56,770 nucleotides of DNA from a virus. Its lineage: Duplodnaviria > Caudoviricetes. Below are positions 1 through 56,770 of the stretch, one piece after another. The notes beneath the pieces were generated by a model. That model saw nothing but the letters and a program-made list of their open reading frames with translations. It was not told where the DNA came from and ran no database searches. The DNA lies in IMG/VR virus record IMGVR_UViG_3300045526_000101, positions 1 to 56,770 of that record, one strand, 5' to 3'. A program made the position numbers and the translations under genes. Positions within the stretch are counted from its first letter, which is position 1, and every line of letters begins with the position of its first letter.

Positions 1-235
1 CTCCCGACCTATAATTATTCGACTGATGGAATAATTGTCGGGACAATAGGATAGAGGTGATGGAAGTGAACCTCATCTCTATTTCTTCTAGTAGTTCTGA
101 GAAGGTTTTACCTGACAATAGAGCCTCCATCAATTCTTCCTTAGTGGTAACCTTAGGGTCATCAAAATTGCCCTCCAAACGAGCCTTAATGTGGGCATCA
201 GCGATAGCTTTCGCCTGTTTACTTATGCGCTTCAT
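1..235 (-). CDS. hypothetical early protein, runs off the left window edge
   Basis: ATG at 235, open reading MKRISKQAKAIADAHIKARLEGNF... to position 1 without a stop; follows the 240..428 ORF. Confidence 0.6.
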   Translation of the reverse strand, partial: MKRISKQAKAIADAHIKARLEGNFDDPKVTTKEELMEALLSGKTFSELLEEIEMRFTSITSILLSRQLFHQSNNYRSG

Positions 236-239
236 ATTT

Positions 240-428
240 TTACTTTTTAGGGGTTATTAATCCGGCCTCGATTAGATCAACTGCTGTTCTGCCATAGAAT
301 CCTTGCATTTGCCATACTAGGCCAGTATCTAACAGGAATTGGAATGCATCCAGTACTTCCTGTTCTTCGGGTTCGTATCCGCAGAAGCCTTCAATGATGC
401 TACATGCATCGTAAATTGTCATTTCCAT
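240..428 (-). CDS. small conserved phage hypothetical protein
   Basis: 62 aa; LLDTGLVWQMQGFYGRTA..LIEAG motif recalled from small phage early proteins; AT-rich upstream region. Confidence 0.7.
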   Translation of the reverse strand: MEMTIYDACSIIEGFCGYEPEEQEVLDAFQFLLDTGLVWQMQGFYGRTAVDLIEAGLITPKK

Positions 429-466
429 ATAATCAAGTTTTATAGTTTAAAAATTTTAGTTCGGGG

Positions 467-658
467 TTATTCCCAATCAAGTTGCCTTAAAGACATTTTT
501 CCATTCAGCAAATCAGCTAATTCCGCTTTGGAAACTATAGCCACATTCCATCCATCAGATGTGTCGTGGATTTCAAACTGGTCTTCTGAGACTCTGTATA
601 TCTCTCTAGTAATAAGACCAAATTTCCAGTCTTGCCATGTGTCAATAGCTTGTGTCAT
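467..658 (-). CDS. hypothetical early protein
   Basis: 63-aa ORF in a co-directional array, AT-rich leader. Confidence 0.6.
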   Translation of the reverse strand: MTQAIDTWQDWKFGLITREIYRVSEDQFEIHDTSDGWNVAIVSKAELADLLNGKMSLRQLDWE

Positions 659-674
659 TTGAATTAAATTTTAT

Positions 675-733
675 GGTTAAGACCATCGGGGCATTGCCCC
701 TAGGTTTCTGCCATTAGGCGTCATCAGTTAACC
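675..733 (-). ncRNA. hammerhead ribozyme, type I (variant stem II)
   Basis: Minus strand GGUUAA-CUGAUGA-C-GCC-UAAU-GGC-A-GAAA-CC-UA-GGGGC-AAU-GCCCC-GAU-GGUC^UUAACC: full core, 6-bp stem I, GUC cleavage triplet (cut after 681); atypical C.A at the base of stem II. Confidence 0.75.
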
Positions 734-962
734 TTGCGTTCAATTCCATATCGGCTTCCATAAATAAATCACCGAAGGCATCTGTCACCTCTGTAGGGAG
801 GTATTTTTCTATGTGCCTGTATGAACGTACTAGGGCAAAGAATTCGCCAATAAAACTTTTTATCTCCTCTAGTTCGTTATTGCTTAATCTGTCGGCATAA
901 AACTTTTCTGTAGTTATATGCTCCATGTTTTCATTGTGTTTACCATCTCCGTAAATAGCCAT
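714..962 (-). CDS. hypothetical early protein
   Basis: 82-aa ORF; its last codons and TAA lie inside the type I hammerhead. Confidence 0.6.
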   Translation of the reverse strand: MAIYGDGKHNENMEHITTEKFYADRLSNNELEEIKSFIGEFFALVRSYRHIEKYLPTEVTDAFGDLFMEADMELNARLTDDA

Positions 963-1002
963 AGTATTAAATTTTAATTGTTAAAAAATTTCAGTTCGGG
1001 GG

Positions 1003-1077
1003 TTACATACATAACCCTAAGCACATGGCCGCAAATGCTATCAGCAGCCACATAATATCCTGTTGATTCTTTTTCAT
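1003..1077 (-). CDS. 24-aa hydrophobic peptide
   Basis: MKKNQQDIMWLLIAFAAMCLGLCM*; ATGA overlap with the upstream ORF; below the ORF-track cutoff. Confidence 0.5.
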   Translation of the reverse strand: MKKNQQDIMWLLIAFAAMCLGLCM

Positions 1078-1205
1078 ATTGATTCTATTAAGGTTCGTAA
1101 TGATTTCGCCACAATAGACTGAGGGAAGAATACGTAGGCGATAATTTGCGTCATGTCAAAAAGTGCCACCATAAACAGGAGGCCGATAAGTAATTTTTCT
1201 TTCAT
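1074..1205 (-). CDS. 43-aa membrane peptide
   Basis: MKEKLLIGLLFMVALFDMTQIIAYVFFPQSIVAKSLRTLIESI*; first ORF after the type III hammerhead. Confidence 0.55.
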   Translation of the reverse strand: MKEKLLIGLLFMVALFDMTQIIAYVFFPQSIVAKSLRTLIESI

Positions 1206-1236
1206 TGTAATTAGTGTTTAAGTATCTAAAATAGAG

Positions 1237-1290
1237 ACGTTTCGGCCTGTCCTTTGGCCTCATCAGTAGCGGAGGTTTACCGCTATACGC
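1237..1290 (-). ncRNA. hammerhead ribozyme, type III
   Basis: Minus strand GCGUA^UAGCGG-UAAACCU-CCGCUA-CUGAUGA-GGCC-AAAGGACA-GGCC-GAAACGU: canonical core, 6-bp stem I, 4-bp stem II, 4-bp stem III, GUA triplet (cut after 1286); loop I CCU can pair with loop II AGG. Confidence 0.9.
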
Positions 1291-1483
1291 TTTTCACTTA
1301 TTCGGCAAGTGCGAGGCGATAAATCAGCCTGTCTATTCTCCGATATAGTCTCATTCCTTCCGGCTCTAGAGACCCAACAACCTAACTTGAACATGGTCAA
1401 GGTTTGTCGCCTTCTGAACTACTAACAAAGCTTTGGGATGCCTTGTCGCCTCCGTAGAGGGTGTCGTGGATAAGTCCGTTGAC
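1291..1483 (-). ncRNA. structured 5' leader of the early transcript
   Basis: No ORF; successive hairpins (GGA-CUUA-UCC, CCUC-UACG-GAGG, CUUGA..UCAAG, GUCUC..GAGAC, AGGC..GCCU, CACUU..AAGUG); AGGCGACAA occurs twice. Confidence 0.45.
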
Positions 1484-1487
1484 AGAG

Positions 1488-1520
1488 CAAACATACGAAG
1501 CCTGTCGTAGATGCTCCAAA
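1488..1520 (-). promoter_or_regulatory. Bacteroidota primary-sigma promoter driving the early operon
   Basis: TTTG (1520-1517), 21 nt, TATGTTTG (1495-1488); matches the -33/-7 consensus TTTG/TANNTTTG. Confidence 0.75.
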
Positions 1521-1749
1521 TTTATTTTTGTAACATTGTTGCAAATATGGAATCAGCTAAAACAATTAGCTAGTGTTTATGCAGGTTACAGCCGATAAAA
1601 ATTTTTTTGTGTAGTATTGATGGGCATCTAACGGGTACGGGCAACCGAAAACCATGATGAGTACTGATTAAAAACAATATGTTAAAGAAATGTTAATCCC
1701 AAAAATTGTCCAGTTTGGTCAAGCCAAAACTTGCCAGTTCGGGGGCATA

Positions 1750-2070
1750 CTATAGCCTCTTATGTAGTAAATATCTCCGTATATAGGATAAGTAATCTCT
1801 GCCTCTATAGGTAAGGGAATAGAGAGCATCAGAACCCTCAATTAATCCGTATCGGGTAAGAATAGAAACGTTATTAGCAAGGGATGGATAATTGGCCACC
1901 AGTTCCGCCTTCTTGCAGATATTGAATAGCACAATAGTCTTAACTGGCGAATGGGTGCGGATAAGGAATAATAGGGTCAGTTGTAAGGTGGTGAGCCGTG
2001 GTAATTCCATCCGCTTGGATGCCATCCGAATGGAGGCCGGAAGATATAGCAAGTACTTCTCTATTTTCAT
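1750..2070 (-). CDS. winged-helix (MarR-like) DNA-binding protein
   Basis: LTTLQLTLL...NVSILTRYGLIE....YSLTYRGRDY wHTH pattern. Confidence 0.55.
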   Translation of the reverse strand: MKIEKYLLYLPASIRMASKRMELPRLTTLQLTLLFLIRTHSPVKTIVLFNICKKAELVANYPSLANNVSILTRYGLIEGSDALYSLTYRGRDYLSYIRRYLLHKRL

Positions 2071-2510
2071 GGGTATCTTTTTGTGAGATGGTATTGATAT
2101 GAGGAGGAGAGGGGGTTATTGTAATTGGTCAGACATGCGCCCATGTCGCCCCAGTTTCCCCACAGATGCTCCCAATATTCGGGTGGTGAATCCAGTTTTC
2201 CCCGTTTATCTTCACAACCTTGTCACACATGGTTCTTTTTTTAATCCTAAATAATCCGCTACAATGCACACTGGTATTGGCTTTTATTGTTTCTATGTAC
2301 ATAATAGTGCATTAAATTATGTGCCGATTTATCGATTTTGGAATAGCTAAATTGACCCCTACCCAGTCTTATTTTTGCGATTCGCACTTGCGTTGGTGGG
2401 TGGACATATATATGCATTACCCCACCTTCTCACCCACACATCACCTCCATTTTTCTCACTCTTATTTCTCACGACTTTTTGAATATGGCTGTGAGCTCAT
2501 TAGAGGCGAT

Positions 2511-2804
2511 TTAAGACTCCCTCATCATGGCTAGATACCTTACCTTCATCTGTTCTATTTCCTTGTCTTCATGCATCCAATTGGCGTAATGGTTTGCATC
2601 TTCCCAAGAGAAGAATACGCCAATAGTTTGAAAGCCATGTTCGCCATACCTTTCCACCACCCAGGCTTTCTCTAACCACACGGTCTCGTACCAAGAGTAC
2701 TCTGGTATCCAGCAGAACTTTCTTCTAATCCTAACATCTCCTGGGTTGTAACGTTTCCATTTCATATGTAAGGTTATAGCTTTACTTATTGTCTTATTTG
2801 TCAA
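2511..2804 (-). CDS. hypothetical protein
   Basis: 97-aa ORF (true start may be the internal ATG); RRKFCWIP...VWLE motif. Confidence 0.5.
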   Translation of the reverse strand: MTNKTISKAITLHMKWKRYNPGDVRIRRKFCWIPEYSWYETVWLEKAWVVERYGEHGFQTIGVFFSWEDANHYANWMHEDKEIEQMKVRYLAMMRES

Positions 2805-2950
2805 GGGATACCTTTACCCCTGAGCTGATTTAATATGCAACTTTTAATACCCCCAGAGTTGCTAACTGTGCCGCCCTACGATGCGGAATCCGAGTGAGCA
2901 GATCTTACGGTATGCCCGATTCTCTACGTCCGCCTAGCCTCAGCGGCATC

Positions 2951-3026
2951 TGTAGTCAGGACAGGATCTGCCCCTGTATCTCTCACCTACAATGATGAGG
3001 CGTTTTCTACCTTACGCCACCTGACT
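2951..3026 (-). tRNA. degenerate tRNA-like RNA
   Basis: AGUCAGG/CCUGACU 7-bp acceptor stem, GCGU/ACGC D-arm, CUCA/UGAG arm with 10-nt loop, ACAGG/CCUGU T-arm with non-canonical loop GGCAGAU; ends ACA. Confidence 0.6.
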
Positions 3027-3076
3027 ATATGCCTGTCTTTCCAGGCTGTCTGGATACGGATCAAAAACGGGCGATG

Positions 3077-3084
3077 CAAAGATA
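3077..3084 (-). promoter_or_regulatory. -7 promoter box upstream of the tRNA-like cluster
   Basis: TATCTTTG on the minus strand; no clear -33 box. Confidence 0.45.
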
Positions 3085-3353
3085 AACTCCCAACACTCGA
3101 AAATATTGTGTTACCCACGAACGTGGATAAGTAGAAATATGTTTTAAATAGTTTCTCTATTATTGTCAGACATGGTTCCACCTGCTAGGGAGTCTCCATT
3201 TAAAAGGCTGGCTAGGTTTACTCCAAGGGGAGATGTTTAAGCTGATGGCAGGAGCGACAGGGAAACCTGCTGGTTTATCCAGAGCTGCGTGACGGACGAG
3301 AGGTTGACGGTGCAGTATTTCTTCGCAAAGGCTCTTGCCTTTTAAGCGAAGCT

Positions 3354-3851
3354 TTGTTCAGAACTCAAAAGTTTCAGGTGCAGTATATAGCTAGACAGTA
3401 TAGACCCAAAGCCAAGGAGCAGAGTGACCTACTCTGTAAACTAGAGACAATAAGATTGTTCTCTACACACCCAAAGTATAGAGCTGTGATGGCGGAAGAC
3501 TTTTACCCAGATGATCCAAAGGTTCAGTACAGAGCCGACATGATCTTGACTGAGAATGGCGAACATAAGTATAGTCTGGAGGTGGAGCATAAGTGGATCT
3601 GGGATCAGGAGTTCCCCTGGCCGGATGTACAGTTCCTTCCCAGGAAGAAAGAGAAGTGGGACGATCCGAGGTTTACGTATGGTAAGCCAACCCATTTCAT
3701 TATGTATAATCGAGATGCCTCACGGCATCTGGTCATCTTCGATGACACTATACGAAATCTAGAGAACAGAAGAATGGTCAACTGCCAACAGAGGGGGCTG
3801 GAAGAATTATACTACGTACCGCTAGACCAGGTGCATTTTGACTATCTATGA
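3354..3851 (+). CDS. PD-(D/E)XK-like nuclease / hypothetical protein
   Basis: ADMIL...LEVEHK catalytic-like spacing; start uncertain (GTG 3378 plausible). Confidence 0.45.
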   Translation: MFRTQKFQVQYIARQYRPKAKEQSDLLCKLETIRLFSTHPKYRAVMAEDFYPDDPKVQYRADMILTENGEHKYSLEVEHKWIWDQEFPWPDVQFLPRKKEKWDDPRFTYGKPTHFIMYNRDASRHLVIFDDTIRNLENRRMVNCQQRGLEELYYVPLDQVHFDYL

Positions 3852-4099
3852 AAAAACACACTAAAATTTATTTAAAACATTTTGATTATGGTATCGATGA
3901 TTTTATTCCCTGCGAGGCATGCGGAAGTCGTGCTGTTGACATTCACCATATTGATTGTCGGGGTATGGGTGGCAGCAAAGCTAAAGACGAGATCGAAAAT
4001 CTAATGGCCCTGTGTAGGTCATGCCATATAAAGTATGGCGATAAAAAACAATACATAGAATTTTTAAAATCCAAACATCAATGCAGATTAGAAAAGTAG
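3848..4099 (+). CDS. HNH endonuclease
   Basis: CEACG..DIHHI...NLMALCRSCH. Confidence 0.85.
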   Translation: MKKHTKIYLKHFDYGIDDFIPCEACGSRAVDIHHIDCRGMGGSKAKDEIENLMALCRSCHIKYGDKKQYIEFLKSKHQCRLEK

Positions 4100-4725
4100 A
4101 CTTCCCTGCAAGTCAGTACATCCAGGAGGAGCATCCTAAAAAACAGATCTATCTACACCATACTGCTGGTGGGCCGGACGGGGTAAGAACATTTAGCAGT
4201 TGGGCAAATAACAAAGAAAGAATAGCCACCTGTGTAGCCATATCGGGTAAAGGTCGTGGCTGTAAGGATGGAGAAATCATCCAGGGATTTTCTTCCAAGC
4301 ATTGGGCCTTTCATTTAGGTCTGAAGGAATCCACTTTTCAGAAACATGGCGTTAAGTACAAATCTCTTGATAAGATATCTATTGGTATTGAGATCTGTAA
4401 CTGGGGACACCTGACTGAAAAGGATGGAAAGTTTTATAACTATGTAGGCGGTGTTGTGGAGGATGTGATTAAACTTCCTAAGAGTTACAAGGGGCATCAG
4501 TTTTTTCATAACTATACAGATGCTCAGATAGAGTCAACCAGGGATCTATTGTTACTATGGAAAGAGCGTTATAAGATACCGCTTACCTATAACGAAGATA
4601 TATGGGATATATGCCCCCGAGCTCTCGAGGGTAAGGCTGGCGTCTTTACACATAACAGTGTGCGTACAGACAAGATTGACATCTACCCACATCCCAAGAT
4701 GATTGAGATGTTAAAGAGCCTTTAA
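4081..4725 (+). CDS. endolysin, N-acetylmuramoyl-L-alanine amidase (Amidase_2)
   Basis: IYLHHTAG, SIGIEICNWG, HNSVRTDKID Zn-ligand motifs. Confidence 0.9.
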   Translation: MQIRKVDFPASQYIQEEHPKKQIYLHHTAGGPDGVRTFSSWANNKERIATCVAISGKGRGCKDGEIIQGFSSKHWAFHLGLKESTFQKHGVKYKSLDKISIGIEICNWGHLTEKDGKFYNYVGGVVEDVIKLPKSYKGHQFFHNYTDAQIESTRDLLLLWKERYKIPLTYNEDIWDICPRALEGKAGVFTHNSVRTDKIDIYPHPKMIEMLKSL

Positions 4726-4773
4726 ATCTATTAGTATAAATCAACCTTAATATTATATCAATAATTTAGCAGT

Positions 4774-5430
4774 ATGGTGGCGTTATTAATTATACTTACA
4801 ATCAACTCTGTTTCGACACCAGATGGGTACACAAGAATTAAGACAGACTCATTTGGCGAATACCTCAGAAGCTTATCTCTTAAAAAAGACAATACTGTTT
4901 ATTTATACAATGGTAAGAGGAAGGAGAATCAAGACGCTCAGTATGCAGTTATTGATGTTTCTGTAGGGAATAAAGATCTACAGCAATGTGCAGATGCTGT
5001 AATGAGGCTACGAGCAGAGTGGCTGTTTAAGACTGGTCAATATGAGAGAATAGCATTTAAATCGGTGGCTGGTAAGACAATGGCATTTAAACCCCCATAT
5101 ACATATGATAATTTTATAAAACACATGTACAATGTATTCAGCGTTTGTAACAGTTGGAGTCTTGAAAAGGAGCTGATGCCTAAAAGATTGCAGGACGTCC
5201 AAATAGGGGATGTCCTTATTAAGGGAGGTTTCCCAGGTCATGTGGTCATCGTTGTGGATGTAGCAGTAAATAAAAATGGAGATAAGGCATTTATGTTGGC
5301 CCAATCGTATATGCCAGCTCAAGATATTCATATATTAAAAGGAGAGGAAGGCCCTTGGTACTTTGTTAAAGAAGGGACTATTGATACTCCAGAATATACA
5401 TTCTATTCCAATCAGTTAAAGACTTGGTAG
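4774..5430 (+). CDS. DUF4846-like exported protein
   Basis: N-terminal hydrophobic stretch; DLQQCADAVMRLRAE, GGFPGHVVIVVD, LAQSYMPAQDIH motifs. Confidence 0.75.
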   Translation: MVALLIILTINSVSTPDGYTRIKTDSFGEYLRSLSLKKDNTVYLYNGKRKENQDAQYAVIDVSVGNKDLQQCADAVMRLRAEWLFKTGQYERIAFKSVAGKTMAFKPPYTYDNFIKHMYNVFSVCNSWSLEKELMPKRLQDVQIGDVLIKGGFPGHVVIVVDVAVNKNGDKAFMLAQSYMPAQDIHILKGEEGPWYFVKEGTIDTPEYTFYSNQLKTW

Positions 5431-5487
5431 AAAACTAGGTGGATAAATACTATCTAAAATAGAGAGTTAATCTTTAATTTAGCAGGT

Positions 5488-6036
5488 ATGCAATCACCTA
5501 CGAGAATTATCGTACAAATAGATAAAAAGTTTAACGACACGTCTAAAGGCGGTTTATATATTGACACTACTTACAAACCAGAGTATCATGTAAACATATC
5601 TGGTAAAGTAGTGGCGATTCCCAAACGCCTTCCTAAAGATTTTTCCAGAGAAGGGTACTACGCTACAGTTGAGGTTGGCGATAAGCTATACTTCCACTAC
5701 CTGGTAGTTCTAGATCCTGACTGTCATCTTTTTGACAACTATTATACAGTTGATTATTTCCAAGCCTTGGCTACTGTAAAGCCAGATGGCAAAGTTCTTC
5801 CAGTAGGAGAACATATTTTGATAGAACCTATGGAAGAAGAGATAACACATGATACGTTAGTTATCCCCGACCTGGCCAAAAAGGTGTCTCTAAATAAGGG
5901 TAAGGTATTCTCATCTAACGATCCATCTATTCCTAATGGAGCTATTGTAGGATTTGAGGAGCAGGGGAAGTTTGAGAATGAGATTGAGGGTCATACCCTA
6001 TACGTAATGTACAACAATAATATCCTATACAAATGA
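5488..6036 (+). CDS. GroES-like co-chaperonin (two tandem GroES-like domains)
   Basis: SKGGLYI..GKVVAIP..VEVGDKLYF followed by a second PVGEHILIEP..LVIPD..KGKV unit. Confidence 0.65.
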   Translation: MQSPTRIIVQIDKKFNDTSKGGLYIDTTYKPEYHVNISGKVVAIPKRLPKDFSREGYYATVEVGDKLYFHYLVVLDPDCHLFDNYYTVDYFQALATVKPDGKVLPVGEHILIEPMEEEITHDTLVIPDLAKKVSLNKGKVFSSNDPSIPNGAIVGFEEQGKFENEIEGHTLYVMYNNNILYK

Positions 6037-56702: not shown

Positions 56703-56770
56703 TCTTCGTTTAATGCTCCTATGTCAATTAAATACCGGGCATAAGCCTCTTCCATTACTTCTGCGAATGG

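Follow-up and report, generated by a model that had tools for sequence, protein, structure and literature searches.

Do two hammerhead ribozymes of different types, set on either side of three small phage genes, cut a separate message out of the transcript that carries them, and is that message linear or circular? The question is raised by the left end of IMG/VR record IMGVR_UViG_3300045526_000101, where small ORFs lie on the minus strand. The original prediction placed two hammerheads there as a cassette that could excise, and possibly circularise, a 605-nt mRNA. The window analysed here is the whole of this linear, complete record of 56,770 bp, which is estimated to be 82% complete as a virus and encodes a large terminase, a portal, structural proteins, an integrase, a RecE-like exonuclease and a primase/helicase. 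The DNA runs containing the record are labelled freshwater metagenomes; no RNA run is listed for window positions 300-1700, and one RNA run of the same study (X24) gave no match, from which nothing follows for expression, cleavage or circles. A blastn search of window positions 1-6000 against the phages collection returned no match, and a search of prokaryote genome contigs for the terminase returned no relative; the phage is a freshwater one, probably of Bacteroidota type.

In a close relative (L094), the two ends of the record are joined through about 2.3 kb that is absent from the window, and by this comparison the minus-strand genes run from position 1 into position 56770 and on to the integrase, recombination and replication genes, all on the same strand. 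Because the ends are linked in this relative and the genes continue across them, both ribozymes are placed near the head of a long leftward operon. Such an operon is plausibly early, and we infer, rather than observe, that its small genes are early and first-expressed. A scan for sigma-70 promoters stayed at chance level (8 found, 8.3 expected), and the candidate promoter that would put both ribozymes on one transcript is a motif picked out by eye. On the minus strand between the two ribozymes, a search for a terminator-like site found none.

Two hammerheads of different types on one strand

The two elements lie 605 nt apart in this phage DNA, on the sense strand of the ORFs between them. The upstream one on the leftward transcript is a type III hammerhead with the following parts:

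1293-1234, minus strand: type III hammerhead ribozyme, cut between A1286 and U1285, its body kept on the downstream RNA
1290-1287 with 1240-1237, minus strand: stem III (G1290-U1287 with A1240-U1237)
1286, minus strand: nucleotide H17 (A1286)
1285-1280 with 1272-1267, minus strand: stem I
1266-1260, minus strand: core CUGAUGA
1259-1256 with 1247-1244, minus strand: stem II
1243-1241, minus strand: core GAA

The invariant core is complete, with CUGAUGA, GAA, the A15.1-U16.1 pair (A1240-U1287) and a non-G nucleotide at the cleavage site (A1286). The cmscan alignment leaves stem III open, with stems I and II loop-closed around the core, and the minimum-free-energy fold is a three-way junction. 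The Rfam model RF00008 scores the element at 36.1 bits (E 2e-5 in a 3-kb search, 9e-8 over the whole record), which is below the gathering score of 48.5, a curator's threshold and not a biological feature. A default Rfam gathering scan of the whole window accordingly gave 0 matches, and relying on that scan alone would have led us to dismiss both hammerheads wrongly. The Rfam search proposed with the original prediction gave the type III element a sub-threshold score and failed for the type I element, for which the hammerhead models, RF00163 included, gave no match in a 161-nt search at E ≤ 10.

We fetched 80 terminase relatives and scanned 1.22 Mb of their loci with a strict hammerhead descriptor. 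The descriptor matched 14 times, compared with 2.3 times per shuffled replicate, and on this basis we reject chance as the explanation. Eleven of the 14 matches are type III and come from the window and from relatives whose terminase is at least 52% identical; two further type III copies (L019 and L029) carry an extra U after A9. Whole-record searches with RF00008 in the records of five relatives gave one match each, at 17.7-45.3 bits and so all under 48.5, and added the copies of L011 and L013. The type III element is present in 14 of the 17 terminase relatives (L010-L025 and L029), always on the strand opposite the terminase gene; in L017, L024 and L025 it was not found in the DNA fetched. 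A search of viral contigs with the exact 28-nt type III core gave 0 matches.

Covariation points to selection on the fold. In an alignment of 11 type III sequences, 85% of cells are paired and 11 of the 18 pairs have changed on both sides; the covariation score is 0.584 against 0.151 in shuffles, none of 500 shuffles scored as well, and slid controls reached at most 0.09. The position of the element is also regular: among 12 relatives scanned, it ends 9-16 nt before an ATG in the 11 listed (L010 is the one not listed), and the genes that follow it are mutually non-homologous. The corresponding distance in the window is 33 nt. As a separate observation, homology of the window to L010 and to contigs of DNA runs X3, X9 and X19 stops at position 1235, precisely where the type III element has its 3' edge.

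The downstream element is a type I hammerhead:

735-673, minus strand: type I hammerhead ribozyme, cut between C681 and U680, its body kept on the upstream RNA
733-728 with 680-675, minus strand: stem I (open)
727-721, minus strand: core CUGAUGA
719-717 with 712-710, minus strand: stem II, with a C720/A709 mismatch at its base
708-706, minus strand: core GAA
705-703 with 684-682, minus strand: stem III, extended by 700-696 with 692-688
681, minus strand: nucleotide C17

All letters of its invariant core are intact, the A705-U682 pair is present together with the three helices, and the minimum-free-energy fold is the hammerhead three-way junction. We built a covariance model, R1, from 25 unrelated phage copies of this ribozyme, leaving the window copy out. 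With filters off, R1 finds the window element as the sole strong match in the whole window (43.1 bits, E 7.4e-8). The canonical type I copies of two relatives, L010 and L091, score 68-77 bits with the same model.

The lower score of the window copy, its failure to match Rfam, its interrupted stem III and the C720/A709 mismatch, at a position where all 25 aligned seed sequences have G-C, would suit a reading in which only the type III element functions, the type I element is weakened or dead and no 605-nt unit is released. We regard this as unlikely. The pair at the base of stem II (10.1-11.1) is usual and not invariant, and among the copies listed the same C...A combination recurs in L107 and in two copies of L113, with A...A in L156. 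The mismatch is a natural variant that could lower the cleavage rate, and it removes no core nucleotide. Along with the intact core and the junction fold, the retention of the region by strain variants in DNA contigs also argues against a dead element.

The closest relative offers a further comparison. L010 has a terminase 99% identical to that of the window in a mosaic genome, with its type III element at 3929-3876 (44 bits) and a textbook type I element about 1.1 kb past it. The stem I of this type I copy is as in the window, and its stems II and III differ from the window in sequence and are fully paired. It overlaps the end of an ORF homologous to the 82-aa ORF of the window (C-terminal 56 aa, 32% identity, E 8e-8). 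Since the two type I elements lie at the ends of homologous ORFs, we consider them orthologous. Taken together, the core and folds of both elements, the covariation of type III and the R1 score of type I uphold the original prediction for the sites, strand, types and cuts of the two hammerheads.

The message that the two cuts would release, and the cistron that follows it, are laid out as follows:

1294..1420, minus strand: non-coding leader, conserved and structured, immediately ahead of the type III cut, with a predicted 2',3'-cyclic phosphate end
681..1285, minus strand: predicted excised RNA of 605 nt with three ORFs, from the two cut sites and hammerhead chemistry
1074..1205, minus strand: 43-aa ORF with a hydrophobic stretch (maximum Kyte-Doolittle value of a 17-residue window 2.12)
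1003..1077, minus strand: hydrophobic ORF of 24 aa that overlaps the 43-aa ORF at its stop (ATGA), within the block conserved in L010
714..962, minus strand: 82-aa ORF, its last codons (RLTDDA) encoded by stem I, core and stem II of the type I element
467..658, minus strand: next cistron, 63 aa, its ATG 22 nt past the type I cut

The three bracketed ORFs and the 605-nt length agree with those first proposed. The 43-aa ORF starts 29 nt past the end of the type III match and 33 nt past its GAAAC box, and L010 shares the block at 992-1235 with 94.7% identity. Loop II of the type I element contains the stop codon (716-714) of the 82-aa ORF. A PHROG scan assigned no function to any of the three ORFs and no PHROG family to the 82-aa ORF. 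Eight loci found through this last ORF (L002-L009) share only its first 15-48 residues and are uninformative on the ribozymes; they contain no Rfam hammerhead at E ≤ 0.01 and no R1 match.

Position of the ribozymes and probable segmentation of the transcript

To place the type I element in a wider context, we wrote a family pattern from these type I copies and searched it in viral contigs and in prokaryote genome contigs. It matched at least 120 viral stretches, in which copies occur between unrelated genes in many phages, and gave 17 matches in prokaryote genome contigs. Four of the genome-contig carriers are Bacteroidota isolates, namely three Mucilaginibacter strains (M. pedocola TBZ30, M. 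gynuensis JCM 17705 and Mucilaginibacter sp. SP1R1) and Paraflavitalea speifideaquila BL16E. Twenty-five copies align gap-free at uniform length, with 400 of 400 cells paired and a covariation score of 0.618 (shuffles: 0.111); the search pattern itself fixes about half of these pairs, so that the informative ones are the inner pairs of stems II and III together with a single pair in stem I.

The family follows a strict rule of position. Of 98 distinct copies among the matches listed, 83 are followed by an ORF of at least 30 aa whose ATG lies 14-32 nt past the cut (median 22 nt); for random positions drawn from these loci, the count is 43 of 415. In 95 of the 98, an open frame of 30 codons or more reaches its stop within the ribozyme or shortly ahead of it, most often as UAA in stem I or UGA in the core. 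The window copy obeys the rule: it lies between two ORFs, 22 nt ahead of the ATG at 658. A looser descriptor run on the family loci, 887 kb in total, found 177 type I elements and 12 of type III, compared with 2 matches in a shuffle. The longest arrays have nine members by this descriptor and eight by R1 (L224), and where both types occur on one strand, type III leads in 9 of 12 cases. In L091, from a record with terminal repeats, three type I copies lie past a type III element, and each of them separates two small ORFs. The Rfam type I model matched one of these three canonical copies, at 23.5 bits against a cut-off of 34, and the thresholds of Rfam 15 thus miss a very common phage type I family.

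As type I copies lie between ORFs at a median of 22 nt before the next start codon, the position rule favours segmentation into linear mRNAs, which the original prediction had offered as the simpler alternative to a circle and which fits the family-wide placement. We think it likely that both elements are active hammerheads, that they cleave the leftward transcript of the minus strand during its synthesis, and that the products remain linear. Cleavage in vivo and its effects on stability and translation are what we infer; the sequences, folds, covariation, positions and family rules are observed. The layout is explained by the topology of the two types: a type III ribozyme discards the leader and keeps its body on the downstream RNA, and a type I ribozyme keeps its body on the upstream RNA and gives the next cistron a short leader.

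Applied to the window, type III cleavage would remove a conserved structured leader of roughly 130-220 nt, and the type III body would remain compactly folded at the start of the first message, which would begin with a 5'-OH. The type I element, on the last codons of the 82-aa gene, would stay at the 3' end of this message as a hairpin followed by a 2',3'-cyclic phosphate, and its cut would free the next cistron with a short, unstructured 22-nt leader beginning with a 5'-OH. The product would be a three-gene mRNA of 605 nt whose two ends lie in ribozyme folds; insulated from the RNA on either side, it could have a stability and a translation rate of its own.

The leader itself could be the main product. 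It is predicted to form three hairpins, and in an alignment of 7 relatives (MAFFT and RNAalifold) 14 of its 25 predicted pairs show compensatory changes. It adjoins the cut site in those 7 relatives, and variants of it occur in others. If the type III element mainly set the 3' end of this leader (1294 to about 1420 or beyond) and so freed a small RNA, processing of the mRNA would be secondary. However, L010 keeps the type III element where the leader is absent, and the constant trait across relatives is the short distance from type III to the ATG, which makes this reading improbable to us. The leader gave no match to Rfam at E ≤ 10, and a search with a pattern of its core found six contigs, all of them already among the terminase relatives, so that it appears confined to this phage clade.

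The occurrence of the type I family between unrelated genes in many phages and the break of homology exactly at 1235, towards L010 as well as towards the X3, X9 and X19 contigs, would also be expected of portable linkers or selfish passengers of gene cassettes, which mark recombination joints and bring little benefit to expression. The strict spacing to the start codon and the covarying pairing indicate instead selection on RNA function, and we consider it very unlikely that the ribozymes are linkers of this kind.

Against the preferred reading stands the distribution of the pair. Type III is paired with type I copies in 2 of the 17 terminase relatives, and in 15 of the 17 type III is alone in the DNA fetched. 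The pair is therefore not a conserved unit, and the check originally proposed, whether relatives keep paired ribozymes around the first ORFs, came out negative for most of them.

Possible circularisation of the predicted fragment

Hammerhead cleavage leaves 5'-OH and 2',3'-cyclic phosphate ends. That the fragment from 1285 to 681 would carry both ribozyme bodies and both kinds of end, as originally proposed, follows from the topology of the two hammerheads, which predicts a 5'-OH at one hairpin and a 2',3'-cyclic phosphate after the other. By established chemistry these ends are the substrates of RtcB, and we considered whether a host ligase of RtcB type could join the 605-nt fragment end to end into a circle, an mRNA for the three small proteins that would resist exonucleases. 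As originally predicted, too, the ligated junction would restore neither ribozyme: stem I of the type I element would not re-form, stem III of the type III element would regain only 2 pairs, and a circle once made would not be cut again. By the same token, since the junction rebuilds no ribozyme, neither ribozyme could perform the ligation and a protein ligase would be needed. RtcB is encoded by all four of the Bacteroidota isolates that carry a type I copy of the family, but also by 10 of 14 control genomes.

The predicted structure of the fragment speaks against a circle. Stem I of the type III element holds its 5' end and stem III of the type I element its 3' end; these are separate local hairpins, the two ends do not pair with each other, and no rod or closing stem is predicted. 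Overall the fragment is about as stable as its shuffles (z -0.70, 20 shuffles). RtcB was not found in the phage record, at its estimated 82% completeness, and the pairing of type III with type I is missing from 15 of the 17 relatives. Moreover, in the portions of Perreault et al. 2011 (PMC3088659) available to us, the authors state that clustered phage hammerheads gave no circles or spliced RNAs that they could detect (data not shown). In the library available to us, a literature search turned up no demonstration of circular mRNAs made by pairs of phage hammerheads. With unpaired ends, an unremarkable fold and no RtcB in the record, the circular part of the original prediction fared poorly, and we hold a circle to be highly improbable.

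A broader version of the idea would have hammerhead-punctuated phage operons make circles in two ways, the 605-nt fragment of the window through host RtcB and the type I arrays through resealing by the ribozymes. In arrays whose copies share stem I, the 3' ribozyme of a fragment could pair with the 5' end of that fragment and restore a hammerhead able to reseal it, as in viroid-like RNAs. Stems are compatible in 26 of 28 neighbouring type I pairs from 14 arrays, compared with 59% of random copy pairs, a difference that is confounded by local duplication. The open stems of the two ribozymes of the window are unrelated and so lack the feature by which identical ribozymes reseal, and the point about arrays does not apply to its mixed pair of type III and type I. 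We give this broader version very little credence, and segmentation into linear messages remains the reading that we prefer.

Relation to known hammerhead systems

Several natural and engineered systems share parts of this layout. Tornado constructs place flanking ribozymes so that one fragment bears a 5'-OH and a 2',3'-cyclic phosphate, and circles are made from it. In synthetic biology, the engineered insulators of RiboJ type use a type III hammerhead that removes the leader and stays as a structured 5' end before the coding region. The window shares the removal of a leader and the structured 5' end, but its type III element occurs naturally and has a type I element as its 3' partner. Retrozymes and viroid-like RNAs, in the portions of the literature available to us, resemble the window in that flanking self-cleaving ribozymes leave the 5'-OH and the 2',3'-cyclic phosphate on one fragment. 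Unlike the window, with its unrelated open stems and unpaired ends, they have repeats of the same ribozyme or ends held by a stem or rod, and their circles have been demonstrated.

In RNA viruses, according to the available portions of PMC13725137, type I hammerheads lie in 5' UTRs, in some cases as tandem pairs that flank short segments, and self-cleavage is needed for translation of the downstream ORF. Those systems belong to eukaryotic RNA viruses with cap-independent translation, whereas the window is a DNA phage with bacterial translation whose arrangement is known from sequence. A position comparable to that of our type III element is described in the parts of PMC3088659 available to us for HHphage, the hammerhead of the haloviruses HF1/HF2, which lies 13 nt upstream of the first start codon on an early polycistronic transcript whose 5' end was mapped at the cut site. 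HHphage is a single copy with a variant core in an archaeal virus, whereas the window has a canonical core and a second ribozyme downstream.

The closest precedent is the work of Perreault et al. 2011 (PMC3088659), of which, as of the review cited below, we draw on the portions available to us. It describes clustered hammerheads flanking genes in prophages and proposes that they process transcripts into single-gene mRNAs; three tandem prophage arrangements cleaved in vitro at all sites, and one cleaved in E. coli. A 2019 review (PMC6765202) states the idea of polycistron processing and describes the purpose of clustered phage hammerheads as still to be defined. The window is like these cases in having hammerheads of mixed type close together, on one strand of phage DNA, flanking genes or short blocks. 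It is unlike them in that its type III element follows a conserved leader and its type I element overlaps the end of a gene, and in its source, a freshwater phage probably of Bacteroidota type. The type I family or the arrangement may already be contained in Figure 3, Figures S1-S3 or Dataset S1 of PMC3088659.

From the family as a whole we suggest three general rules: type III tends to sit at the head of an operon, after a leader; type I sits between cistrons and cuts about 22 nt before the next start codon; and the stop codons of the upstream genes lie inside the ribozyme. The Bacteroidota with chromosomal copies are cultivable, so that cleavage, stability, translation and circle formation could be measured in them directly. 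The arrangement is of a kind known in phages since 2011, to which the window adds a further case, and what this case adds is modest: the family-wide rules and the cultivable carriers.

Mosaic joint and leader at the type III ribozyme

Homology between the window and its closest terminase relative, L010, ends exactly at position 1235, at the 3' boundary of the type III hammerhead, and homology to contigs from three DNA sequencing runs (X3, X9 and X19) ends at exactly the same position. In these variants, the ribozyme is separated from the 43-aa ORF by an additional ORF. A mosaic joint falls at the edge of the type III ribozyme, at window position 1235.

On the upstream side, the cut site is adjoined by a conserved non-coding element:

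1294-1420, minus strand: conserved leader element

The element comprises three hairpins, with compensatory changes in 14 of the 25 predicted pairs, and the blocks kept in it include GCGCCAAACC, GUUAGGGUGUUGG, CCGAAAGG and GAUUUAUC. It is also present in terminase relatives L012, L018, L019, L022, L023 and L029; L010 retains the type III ribozyme and lacks the element. A pattern search with its core found matches confined to the window's phage clade, and an Rfam search (E<=10) returned no match to the element.

Shared N-terminus and tRNA matches

Residues 1-15 of the 82-aa ORF, MA[IF]YGDGKHNENME (window 918-962, minus strand), are kept in eight viral contigs of 46-238 kb that differ otherwise (L002-L009, located near 3001-3045 in each). 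The codons of this segment differ chiefly at third positions and the remainder of each protein is divergent. The segment looks like a putative N-terminal tag common to otherwise differing proteins.

Two of these contigs also contain tRNA matches in which the anticodon-arm region carries a long insertion; these may be phage tRNAs with introns:

L005 3905-4026: tRNA match, ~59 nt inserted
L009 4987-5084: tRNA match, ~40 nt inserted

Type I arrays and a core variant

Our covariance model of the phage type I family, R1, matches eight hammerheads within the 5.8 kb of locus L224. Arrays are also very dense in L228, L233, L132 and L131 (4-7 hits in loci other than L224), and the density is about one type I hammerhead per small ORF. 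Some array contigs carry MAG labels (Aliivibrio, Methanoregula, Streptomycetaceae) that may stem from phage contigs having been misbinned. Two type I copies only ~160 nt apart occur at 3830-4075 of L232, from the chromosome of Paraflavitalea speifideaquila, a cultivable bacterium with a complete genome.

A single additional U between A9 and the first stem II pair is found in the hammerheads at L019 2380-2455 and L029 1050-1120 and in a number of type I copies, L124, L127, L153 and L158 among them; this variant recurs across both the type III and type I hammerheads.

Candidate promoter

Reading by eye, we noted a promoter-like motif:

1517-1545, minus strand: TTTG, 17 nt, TAAATTTG

The sequence AAATTTGGAG is common to the window, L010 and another terminase relative, L015. 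If this motif is a promoter, the type III ribozyme would cut off a leader of ~225 nt. The motif is similar to the Bacteroidota promoter consensus.
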